Shown in pieces: positions 11,352 to 13,067 of a DNA stretch of 35,750 nucleotides (position 1 is the first letter of the stretch; the number at the start of each line of letters is the position of its first letter). The DNA comes from a virus (taxonomy: Duplodnaviria > Heunggongvirae > Uroviricota > Caudoviricetes): positions 78,839-114,588 of IMG/VR virus record IMGVR_UViG_3300044614_000224; one strand, 5' to 3'. Both the position numbers and the translations under genes were made by a program. The notes below the pieces were generated by a model, which was not told the origin of the DNA, made no database searches, and worked only from the letters and a program-made list of their open reading frames with translations.

Positions 11352-11831
11352 TTAAGGAGCTGCAGTAGTTGTTGTAGTGGTTGTACTAGTACTAGTAGAA
11401 GTAGTAGTTGTTGTACTAGTAGATGATGTAGTGGTAGTAGTTGTATTACTAAAACTTACTTCAGGACTTAAACCAGAACACTCACAACCAGCTCCTGCTG
11501 TAATAACTGTTGTAGTTCCTGATGCATCTACTGCAGATACAGAACCAGTTACAGCACATATAGTAGTTACTAATAAATTAGTACCAACTAAATTTACAGT
11601 TTGTGTGCTGTTGTCAACACCAGATCTGTAAGTGATAACACTTGATAGAGCACCTGAAGCAGTTGCTACAACTTGATAAGAGGTACCGCCACTGTTGCAC
11701 TCATACCCTTGTACTTGTTGCCAGTTGCCTACCTTTGGTTTGTTTCTACGCAGTATTAAGCTACCTGCAACTACTCTGCCACTACCATCATAGCGGACAT
11801 AAGCTTTAAGATCACGATTGTTACTTCCCAT
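11352..11831 (-). CDS. Putative virion accessory protein with a C-terminal Thr/Ser tract
   Basis: N-terminal LKAYVRYDGSGRVVAGSLILRRNKPKVGNW; beta-rich middle; C-terminal run of about 28 Thr/Ser ending AAP. The structural role is inferred. Confidence 0.6.
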   Translation of the reverse strand: MGSNNRDLKAYVRYDGSGRVVAGSLILRRNKPKVGNWQQVQGYECNSGGTSYQVVATASGALSSVITYRSGVDNSTQTVNLVGTNLLVTTICAVTGSVSAVDASGTTTVITAGAGCECSGLSPEVSFSNTTTTTTSSTSTTTTTSTSTSTTTTTTTAAP

Positions 11832-11848
11832 TTTTTAAATTTTTATGG

Positions 11849-12865
11849 TTAATAGTTAAGGTTATATTTGTTTTTTAATTCCATTAGTTGTGATGTATAA
11901 TAATGTGTACAGAACTTCTGACTCTGTTCATTATTCATAACTGTTTGCATATGAGGATCGTCGAAAGGATCTTGTCCTGTGTGATACTTTCCTTTATAGA
12001 AAGCAGGATACCCATTGGCTTCATCACCAACAATTCCTGCGTTATGTAAGAGTCCTGTTCTCTCTAGTTTCTGAATTGGATCAGAAGACCAAGCAAAATC
12101 CATTTCAGGAATAATCTTCGCTTCTTGATTCCTATACCAAATAGCCCAGAGAACAGCCCACATATCAGCACACCAACTTTGAAAGCCTTTATTTTCATTC
12201 TCGAAGAATTCTCTGTTTATGTTTAGTAAATGTGTTCTAATTACCAAACAGTCTTGCAACACCTTGTCCCAGAAATCACTATCGATGTTCTTTAATAGGT
12301 ATTGTGCTCCTCCTGAATGCTCATTGTTAGCTTCAGCTATCTCTCTAGTTATGCCTGTAAGTTCTGCTGTTTCAGCTAGAATGTCTCTAGTTTTGTACAG
12401 CTCAAGCTTTTCAGGCTTTACATCCTTCACTTTACTATCAAAATATGAAGCGTTGATATAACTGTTTGTATCAGATACATAGTTTATATCATCATCTAGA
12501 TAAGCATCTATGTTTAGGTTCTCTGTAAACACTACGTCTGAATCACAATACATAACAGCTTTATCTTTCATCCCTGGATTCTCTGCAAAATATCTTTTCA
12601 AACAATAAGGACGCAACACAGGAATATAAACTCCTAACATGTTGCTAATTTTGTGCTCATCTTTGTAGAATACAAATTCAGCTTCTGGATAGAGATCTAT
12701 CACTTGCTGCCATTTGGTATTCTTTTCCCTATAACTAGGAATGAATATAAGCACAATTGCTTTGTCTGAATGTCCAATTTTCTTTAAGCTCTCTATCCAT
12801 AAATGTACCTGCCATGTGTAATAGGTATCATCTGGTTGAGCACAGATAAATCTGAGATCCTTCAT
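11849..12865 (-). CDS. GT-A glycosyltransferase resembling plant peptidyl O-glycosyltransferases (GT95 HPAT / GT96 SERGT)
   Basis: YYTWQVHLWIESL (cf. YFDWQ/YSKWQ), DxD in YCDSD, HSGGAQY, WCADMWA (cf. WISEMY/WVLEMY). Confidence 0.6.
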   Translation of the reverse strand: MKDLRFICAQPDDTYYTWQVHLWIESLKKIGHSDKAIVLIFIPSYREKNTKWQQVIDLYPEAEFVFYKDEHKISNMLGVYIPVLRPYCLKRYFAENPGMKDKAVMYCDSDVVFTENLNIDAYLDDDINYVSDTNSYINASYFDSKVKDVKPEKLELYKTRDILAETAELTGITREIAEANNEHSGGAQYLLKNIDSDFWDKVLQDCLVIRTHLLNINREFFENENKGFQSWCADMWAVLWAIWYRNQEAKIIPEMDFAWSSDPIQKLERTGLLHNAGIVGDEANGYPAFYKGKYHTGQDPFDDPHMQTVMNNEQSQKFCTHYYTSQLMELKNKYNLNY

Positions 12866-12893
12866 ATATGTAGTTTTGTTGGTTTTGTTTTAT

Positions 12894-13067
12894 TTACGGT
12901 GTAGCAGTTGTAGTTGTAGTTGTAGTACTACTGCTACTAGTGGTTGTAGTAGTGGTAGCAGGAATATTCCTACCCATCACTCCTGTAAGCCTTTCTAATT
13001 GCTTAGATATCTGCCAAAGTAGTTTAGCCTTTTGGCTCCAGCCTATTTGTTGAGAAGGTATTGCCAT
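12894..13067 (-). CDS. 57-aa protein: MAIPS anchor module plus Thr/Ser tail, not in the ORF track
   Basis: MAIPSQQIGWSQKAKLLWQISKQLERLTGVMGRNIPATTTTTTSSSSTTTTTTTATP; its N-terminus is paralogous to that of 13070..13639. Confidence 0.8.
   Translation of the reverse strand: MAIPSQQIGWSQKAKLLWQISKQLERLTGVMGRNIPATTTTTTSSSSTTTTTTTATP

Follow-up and report, generated by a model that had tools for sequence, protein, structure and literature searches.

Glycosylation of mycobacteriophage virions blunts antibody recognition, and in plants the enzymes of the hydroxyproline O-arabinosyltransferase (HPAT) and SGT1 type, which glycosylate cell-wall peptides, are type II membrane proteins of the Golgi. Among phages, O-glycosylation of virion proteins has been described for Che8 (gp108-110), Corndog (gp38) and Myrna (Freeman et al. 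2023, as cited in PMC12363180 and PMC12619734), and these three mycobacteriophages are the only ones to which we could trace demonstrated virion glycosylation in phages. In the present study, we analysed a stretch of 35,750 nucleotides (nt), hereafter the window, which is the final 35.75 kb (positions 78,839 to 114,588) of the 114,588-bp caudoviricete genome IMGVR_UViG_3300044614_000224, a genome with direct terminal repeats that belongs to a phage of Bacteroidota-type bacteria. Here the gene of a 338-amino-acid (338-aa) glycosyltransferase lies between two genes whose products end in runs of threonine (Thr) and serine (Ser), and we consider it likely that this enzyme O-glycosylates the poly-Thr tracts of phage proteins.

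A glycosyltransferase gene between genes with Thr-rich ends

Four closely packed genes occupy positions 11352-13639 on the minus strand and encode, in transcription order, proteins of 189, 57, 338 and 159 aa, with intergenic gaps of 2, 28 and 17 nt and a further gap of 11 nt. Both neighbours of the glycosyltransferase gene close on Thr/Ser runs, as the original prediction had read them: the 159-aa protein ends in TTTTTTTAAP-stop, a run of 27 residues lying within its last 30, and the 57-aa protein in TTTTTTTATP-stop. One of the two had been reported as missing from the track of open reading frames (ORFs), and it is indeed absent, because the 57-aa ORF falls below the default listing cut-off of 60 aa. 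The tracts are encoded by mixed ACT, ACA, ACC, AGT and TCT codons and are therefore not simple microsatellites. By pattern match, a promoter-like element of Bacteroidota type stands ahead of the 189-aa gene, and the next such element on the minus strand is met only at 10617-10647, a spacing which suggests that the four genes of the cassette and two downstream genes may form a single transcription unit.

This arrangement recurs in related genomes. We assembled 80 related viral loci (enzyme identity 66-99%, genomes of about 100-119 kb), located the enzyme gene in 79 of them and found at least one neighbouring protein with a Thr/Ser run in 77 of the 79. Upstream, an ORF with a conserved start of about 32 aa (MAIPS.QIGW...LLWQISKQLE) is kept in 69 of the 74 loci with enough flank, 66 times with a Thr/Ser run, so that the 57-aa ORF is evidently a real gene. 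Downstream, 73 of 78 loci hold an ORF with a conserved start of about 45 aa (LKAYVRYDGSGRVV...KPKVG.W.EI.AYECC), and a Thr/Ser run is present in 68. In both neighbour families, the smallest members are a bare module with its tail (44-100 aa), and the largest add big domains to the module (up to 633 aa). Tails and payloads turn over quickly, e.g., the enzyme of locus L007 is 99% identical, yet the tail sequence differs.

Within the tails, it is the length of the Thr blocks that is most regular. Of the 230 Thr runs of at least four residues that unique neighbour proteins contain, 133 measure exactly seven residues and 32 measure eight, with almost none longer, and the spacers between blocks have three residues, mostly VAP, AAP or VPP. 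Cultured phages of Bacillota (Enterococcus, Lactobacillus, Staphylococcus) display the same peak at 6-7 residues. So sharp a peak at seven fits a defined recognition unit, and we hypothesize that a ruler-like acceptor site lies behind the seven-residue quantum.

The modules that carry the tails also occur with other payloads. The first module of the 57-aa protein is common to the adjacent 189-aa protein (64% identity over 36 aa), whose later domain matches phage proteins by tblastn, one of them annotated as "cerebellin-1 domain" (C1q-like). C1q-like heads are typical of fibre tips, and the resemblance suggests that the 189-aa protein carries a small trimeric fibre head. Taken from the sequences, the whole looks like a plug-in display system whose docking or oligomerising module is fitted with a folded head or, alternatively, with a Thr tail. 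The body of the 159-aa protein found no match among cultured phages.

The original prediction had regarded the locus as an enzyme-plus-substrate cassette. The two Thr-tailed flanking genes are real, but they are not the sole poly-Thr genes, since at least eight proteins with Thr-dominated runs are encoded genome-wide: the two flanking proteins, two more in the window and four in the structural region. The proposed target set is consequently genome-wide rather than a self-contained sandwich of two genes. In the structural region, a poly-Thr protein of 1608 aa matches PHROG virion structural families (E = 3e-103), a 379-aa poly-Thr-tailed protein is encoded two genes past the capsid gene, and poly-Thr proteins of 136 and 177 aa adjoin a tail-fibre-like gene. 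The 177-aa protein and the 160-aa protein of the window have a common C-terminal domain after the poly-Thr linker (66% identity). For the 379-aa protein, the phage database, PHROG, Pfam and the ESM Atlas gave no match, and its AlphaFold2 model was unusable (shallow alignment, predicted local distance difference test (pLDDT) 42.6).

Fold and relatives of the enzyme

The motifs that the original prediction had read in the enzyme are present as YYTWQ (residues 15-19), DSD (108-110) and WCADMW (231-236). In a family alignment of 58 sequences, which takes in relatives down to 30% identity, D108, D110, Q229, H274, K291 and several tyrosines are invariant, and an exhaustive search for relatives returned 768 clusters at 50% identity. 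The enzyme matches phrog_4417, a family of unknown function, at E = 2.6e-55 (residues 5-319 against profile positions 2-285 of 293). A Pfam scan at E <= 0.1 yielded no match for it, Glyco_transf_8 (PF01501) included, and sequence searches of solved structures, either with the single protein or with the 58-sequence profile, gave nothing meaningful. It has neither a signal peptide nor a membrane helix, the first beta-strand of its model starting at residue 4. Some longer relatives are fused to domains of glycosyltransferase family 2 (GT2), to DXD sugar-binding domains of GT32 type and to sugar-type methyltransferase domains, which is the company expected of an enzyme from a glycan-building pathway. 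Conceivably the protein is an inactive or non-catalytic member of the fold, e.g., an assembly chaperone that binds Thr tails and leaves them unmodified, and the want of a curated family match would agree with this; however, the DxD pair, the His and several Tyr, Lys and Gln residues stay invariant in relatives down to 30% identity, and the fusions to sugar-pathway domains argue for catalysis, so that we hold this to be very improbable.

The AlphaFold2 model of the enzyme (pLDDT 97.4, predicted template modelling score 0.94) has a GT-A fold, Rossmann-like, with the conserved DxD. It found 198 matches in the PDB at E <= 0.001, and the top ones among the matches listed are mainly GT-A enzymes. 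The best solved structures are glycogenin (Z = 14.2), the Skp1 alpha-galactosyltransferase (Z = 14.0), LgtC (Z = 13.6) and GlyE (Z = 13.0), with WbbM and UGGT also in the neighbourhood; no solved structure annotated as GT95 or GT96 was among the matches listed. Among models of reviewed proteins, the closest is Arabidopsis SGT1 of GT96 (E = 2.4e-11, template modelling (TM) score 0.61, residues 391-702, 11% identity). Chlamydomonas SGT1 matches at E = 3.1e-7, and HPAT1-3, RDN1/2, PLENTY and NOD3 match at E values from 1e-8 to 3.7e-7 with TM scores of 0.56-0.58; in this set SGT1 and the HPATs outrank GT8. Against AlphaFold clusters, the enzyme's own family comes first (TM score 0.77-0.84), followed by proteins with an HPAT-like domain and DUF7164, ranks 8-20 being dominated by "hydroxyproline O-arabinosyltransferase-like domain" proteins, algal ones among them.

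By sequence, the same relationship is approached but not reached. PF23452 (HPAT) is touched by 4 of the 58 relatives, at best with 21.9 bits against a cut-off of 23.9, and no other Pfam family is touched by more than one of them. The window protein itself has no PF23452 match at E <= 1, and at E <= 10 there was none in the whole genome, control genomes being silent too. In the ESM Atlas, PF23452 occurs in 10-58% of the members of language-model neighbours, and a search seeded with a near-cut-off relative returned members of its own family only, with no HPAT-annotated protein. The enzyme had been predicted to be like plant GT95 and GT96; structure bears this out, in that SGT1 and the HPATs stand ahead of GT8, and sequence does not, as PF23452 is not reached. 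With a structural match and no profile match, we call the enzyme HPAT/SGT1-like and do not count it as a shown member of GT95 or GT96.

Going by the model, the enzyme is placed in a structural neighbourhood of retaining GT8, GT24, GT95 and GT96 enzymes. Its structural neighbours are, following CAZy, all presumed by us to be retaining enzymes, and this suggests that an alpha-linked sugar would be transferred from a UDP-alpha-sugar (UDP, uridine diphosphate).

Enzyme and poly-Thr tails in other phages

By tblastn, homologues of the enzyme are found in 77 cultured-phage records, from phages of Lactobacillus, Enterococcus, Staphylococcus, Lactococcus, Clostridium, Chryseobacterium and, in one record, Arcanobacterium. 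The co-occurrence of enzyme and poly-Thr genes across phage lineages that had been predicted proved strong: besides the related loci described above, it is seen in phiFL-like loci and in seven further cultured phages.

The phiFL-like phages of Enterococcus allow the most direct comparison. In phiFL2B, the enzyme gene comes immediately after that of the tail tube, and Thr runs close the head protein as well as the tail-tube protein. Using the body of the tail-tube protein as probe, we fetched 20 viral loci of this kind. In all nine enzyme-positive loci, the capsid protein and the tail-tube protein are each extended C-terminally by poly-Thr. None of the 11 enzyme-negative loci has such extensions, although homology between the protein bodies is clear as far as the start of the tail. 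Furthermore, in the enzyme-negative loci a chaperone gene directly follows the tail-tube gene, and in the enzyme-positive loci the enzyme gene is inserted precisely there. The exact probability of such a table (9/0/0/11) is 1 in 167,960, a figure to be read with possible kinship among the positives in mind. As to annotation, GenBank labels the enzyme homologue of phiFL2B (L002, 5001-5909) and of phiFL1A/1B "major tail protein", probably in error, the true tail-tube gene, to judge from the sequences, being the preceding "conserved hypothetical protein".

The seven further cultured phages pair the enzyme with Thr runs on capsid, tail or adjacent proteins. In PLE3 these runs are on the capsid, a tail protein and the ORF preceding the enzyme, and in Lactococcus phage 1706 on the capsid/protease protein and on the "major structural protein" preceding the enzyme, while bIL285, Staphylococcus DH5, Enterococcus nattely, Lactobacillus Semele and Chryseobacterium MA9V-3 show the same pairing. 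The Thr runs of Lactococcus 1706 (L108) and bIL285 (L112) are longer, at 9-10 residues, and in every case the protein then closes with a fixed HHD or RHD, which suggests a lineage-specific end cap.

These loci bear on the possibility that the target is not a protein at all and is instead phage DNA, lipopolysaccharide, capsule or teichoic acid (as in serotype conversion or superinfection exclusion), with the poly-Thr tracts as unmodified flexible spacers nearby. Many phage glycosyltransferases do target DNA or host surface polymers, as is generally known and restated in PMC12619734; GT8-type relatives such as LgtC and WbbM build lipopolysaccharide, and one Enterococcus homologue is annotated "with lpxB motif". 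Nevertheless, the siphophage enzyme gene sits inside the capsid/tail gene block, its presence tracks the Thr extensions on capsid and tail-tube proteins that are otherwise homologous, the named proteins closest in structure glycosylate peptides, and the enzyme has no membrane segment. We therefore judge a non-protein target to be quite unlikely.

Additionally, we drew a random sample of 54 viral records, chosen only for nine consecutive ACN codons, (ACN)9. The short-frame set first contained poly-Thr ORFs cut by locus ends, and records were reclassified before the final counts. Seven of the 54 encode the enzyme, and in five of these it directly abuts a poly-Thr gene. By class, the enzyme is present in 7 of 40 long-open-frame and 0 of 14 short-frame records, numbers too few for a claim.

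Several observations weigh against poly-Thr glycosylation by this enzyme. Among the 40 sampled records with a coding poly-Thr run, 33 (mostly fragments) are without the enzyme, hence poly-Thr does not require it. The enzyme-positive Enterococcus loci may be one clade, and we accordingly treat the split of nine and 11 as one or two gain or loss events rather than as twenty samples. The window enzyme matches no curated glycosyltransferase profile by sequence. Finally, the two flanking genes lie outside the structural module, and no relatives of the 57-aa or the 159-aa protein could be detected among annotated virion proteins.

The last two points would also suit a different fate for these small proteins, in which the tails are glycosylated and the proteins are released or cell-associated glycopeptides, i.e., mucin-like decoys, adhesins or glycocin-like leader-plus-core products, and no part of the virion. 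The cassette stands beside the envelope/lysis region, neither protein matches a known virion family, the upstream proteins of 44-67 aa consist of a conserved N-terminal "leader" and a Thr-rich "core", and the downstream family has a conserved Cys-Cys ahead of the tract. On the other hand, the same N-module bears a C1q-like head in the adjacent 189-aa paralogue, the tails in cultured phages are on annotated capsid and tail-tube proteins, and signal peptide, protease and exporter are all absent from the cassette. We regard a non-virion role of the two flanking proteins as unlikely, and would rather place them on the particle.

Poly-Thr glycosylation, which we favour, would proceed as follows. 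The soluble GT-A enzyme would move a sugar from a host UDP-sugar to the Thr (and Ser) hydroxyls of the poly-Thr tracts, which would act as portable acceptor tags built from blocks of about seven Thr with three-residue x-A/P-P spacers. Such tags would be carried by the two flanking modular proteins and at least six others, several of them in the virion structural module. Modification would take place in the cytoplasm, ahead of assembly, and other glycosyltransferases of the window, an acyltransferase and a sulfation pair may extend or tailor the glycan. Phage proteins exposed at the surface would thereby acquire a glycan brush of mucin-like character. More tentatively, and with rather more doubt than confidence, we can imagine that the heptathreonine tag and its HPAT/SGT1-like enzyme make up a cross-phylum phage system (Bacteroidota, Bacillota) which sugar-coats capsids, tails and plug-in fibres, with a molecular ruler in the enzyme behind the seven-residue quantum, and with the phage and bacterial members of the family as prokaryotic kin of plant and algal GT95 and GT96.

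Further genes and comparison with known systems

Coordinates of the cassette and of the other features discussed are collected in Table 1. Two GT2 genes with a hexapeptide acyltransferase, and a large multi-domain glycosyltransferase, are candidates for work on the glycan. From 25825 to 27448, genes for a sulfotransferase, for an APS kinase and for a small protein resembling cytidylyltransferases stand in a row, and a sulfation pathway encoded by the phage could yield mucin-like glycans that bear sulfate.

Table 1. Positions in the window of the cassette and of further features with a proposed part in glycosylation.
Feature	Position	Strand	Basis
338-aa GT-A glycosyltransferase (phrog_4417), HPAT/SGT1-like fold; proposed initiating polypeptide O-glycosyltransferase	11849..12865	-	PHROG, AlphaFold2 model, structural neighbours
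Codons of D108-S109-D110 (DxD), proposed metal and nucleotide-sugar site	12536..12544	-	Invariance; role as in GT-A enzymes generally
57-aa protein, 36-aa "MAIPS" N-module plus Thr/Ser tail; minimal proposed glycan carrier	12894..13067	-	ORF, module comparison
17-residue Thr/Ser tract of the 57-aa protein, proposed acceptor	12906..12956	-	
159-aa protein, conserved N-module of about 45 aa (KAYVRYDGSGRVV...), variable body, 27-residue Thr/Ser tail	11352..11831	-	
27-residue Thr/Ser tract of the 159-aa protein, proposed acceptor	11364..11444	-	
189-aa paralogue, MAIPS module plus C1q/cerebellin-like head, no Thr tail; first gene of putative operon	13070..13639	-	
Promoter-like element of Bacteroidota type, TTG-N19-TAccTTTG, 19 nt ahead of the 189-aa gene	13659..13688	-	Pattern match only
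115-aa protein ending T8-AVEE, further proposed acceptor	28384..28731	-	
160-aa protein with PPP-T8 interdomain linker	28778..29260	-	
Two GT2 genes (5422-6177, 6630-7262) and hexapeptide acyltransferase (6161-6640), candidate extending/tailoring enzymes	5422..7262	+	Pfam; link to Thr tails putative
1128-aa multi-domain glycosyltransferase, GT4-like and GT9-like domains; candidate extending enzyme, or other substrate	22473..25859	+	
APS kinase (26196-26633) and sulfotransferase (26630-27448), possible glycan sulfation	26196..27448	-	Pfam; link to Thr tails putative

Elsewhere in the window, positions 13745-15705 encode a 414-aa protein that combines a signal peptide with a long region rich in Ser and Ala and with a C-terminus rich in strands, followed by a 238-aa signal-peptide protein, a gene pair that resembles an envelope-targeted cassette. 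Positions 7437-10285 hold a series of small proteins (48-193 aa) that are very rich in lysine and resemble one another in their initial M-x-K-V-K-K-[AS]-Q motifs, and a 565-aa protein at 17319-19016 has a C-terminal cohesin domain (Pfam E = 1.4e-8), unusual for a phage.

If poly-Thr glycosylation is true, phages of gut, dairy and environmental bacteria, including well-studied phages of Enterococcus, Lactococcus and Lactobacillus, would commonly have glycosylated virions, and sugar coats on phage proteins may be much more widespread than the documented mycobacteriophage case suggests. It would then matter for the pharmacology of phage therapy, for mucus adherence and for odd gel mobilities of capsid and tail proteins. 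The enzyme and its tag would offer a compact pair for glyco-engineering, and plant and algal GT95 and GT96 would gain a prokaryotic and viral relative acting on threonine. We found no literature on this enzyme family or on phage poly-Thr tails in a collection that is incomplete, which is no proof of absence.

With the plant enzymes, the window enzyme has in common the GT-A fold with its DxD, and it would likewise put the first sugar directly on hydroxyl side chains of repetitive low-complexity peptides. It differs in that identity is only 11-14%, that it is soluble, and that its acceptor would be Thr runs instead of hydroxyproline or the Ser of Ser-hydroxyproline motifs. GT8 supplies the best solved structures (Z scores of 13-14.2 over 216-236 residues), and both glycogenin and GlyE act on proteins; GlyE, in the pneumococcal serine-rich-repeat pathway, adds sugar to a Ser-rich repeat adhesin, which is the functional counterpart of a Thr-rich tail. 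However, there is no Glyco_transf_8 match, identity is 9-12%, and the predicted-structure matches to GT95 and GT96 score better.

The Che8-type system is approached from another side. There, cytoplasmic glycosyltransferases of the phage decorate C-terminal regions of capsid and tail-tube subunits, and the enzyme proposed here would do likewise. Thr runs, the putative acceptors, are at this position in the enzyme-bearing phages of Enterococcus, Lactococcus, Lactobacillus and Staphylococcus; in the window genome the tails are instead on structural-module proteins and small modular proteins to which no role is assigned. Both systems also have accessory GT2 and O-methyltransferase domains: Che8 gp108 is itself a GT2 plus methyltransferase protein, and relatives of the present enzyme are fused alike. 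In the fused metagenomic relatives P0139, P0169, P0195 and P0260, the domain set mirrors that of Che8 gp108, the core enzymes being unrelated. The enzymes of Che8 are GT2 plus methyltransferase, GT2-like and GT25-like, whereas the window enzyme belongs to an unrelated family, which hhalign pairs with Che8 gp110 at a probability of 0.06%. The capsid and tail proteins of Che8 end in a short ...TGS or ...DGS, those considered here in poly-Thr. Hosts differ as well: the 77 homologue-bearing records include no Mycobacterium phage, and the enzyme-bearing phages infect Bacteroidota and Bacillota. The present system would thus follow the same logic as virion glycosylation in mycobacteriophages with different parts, namely an unrelated enzyme family and a transferable poly-Thr tag.

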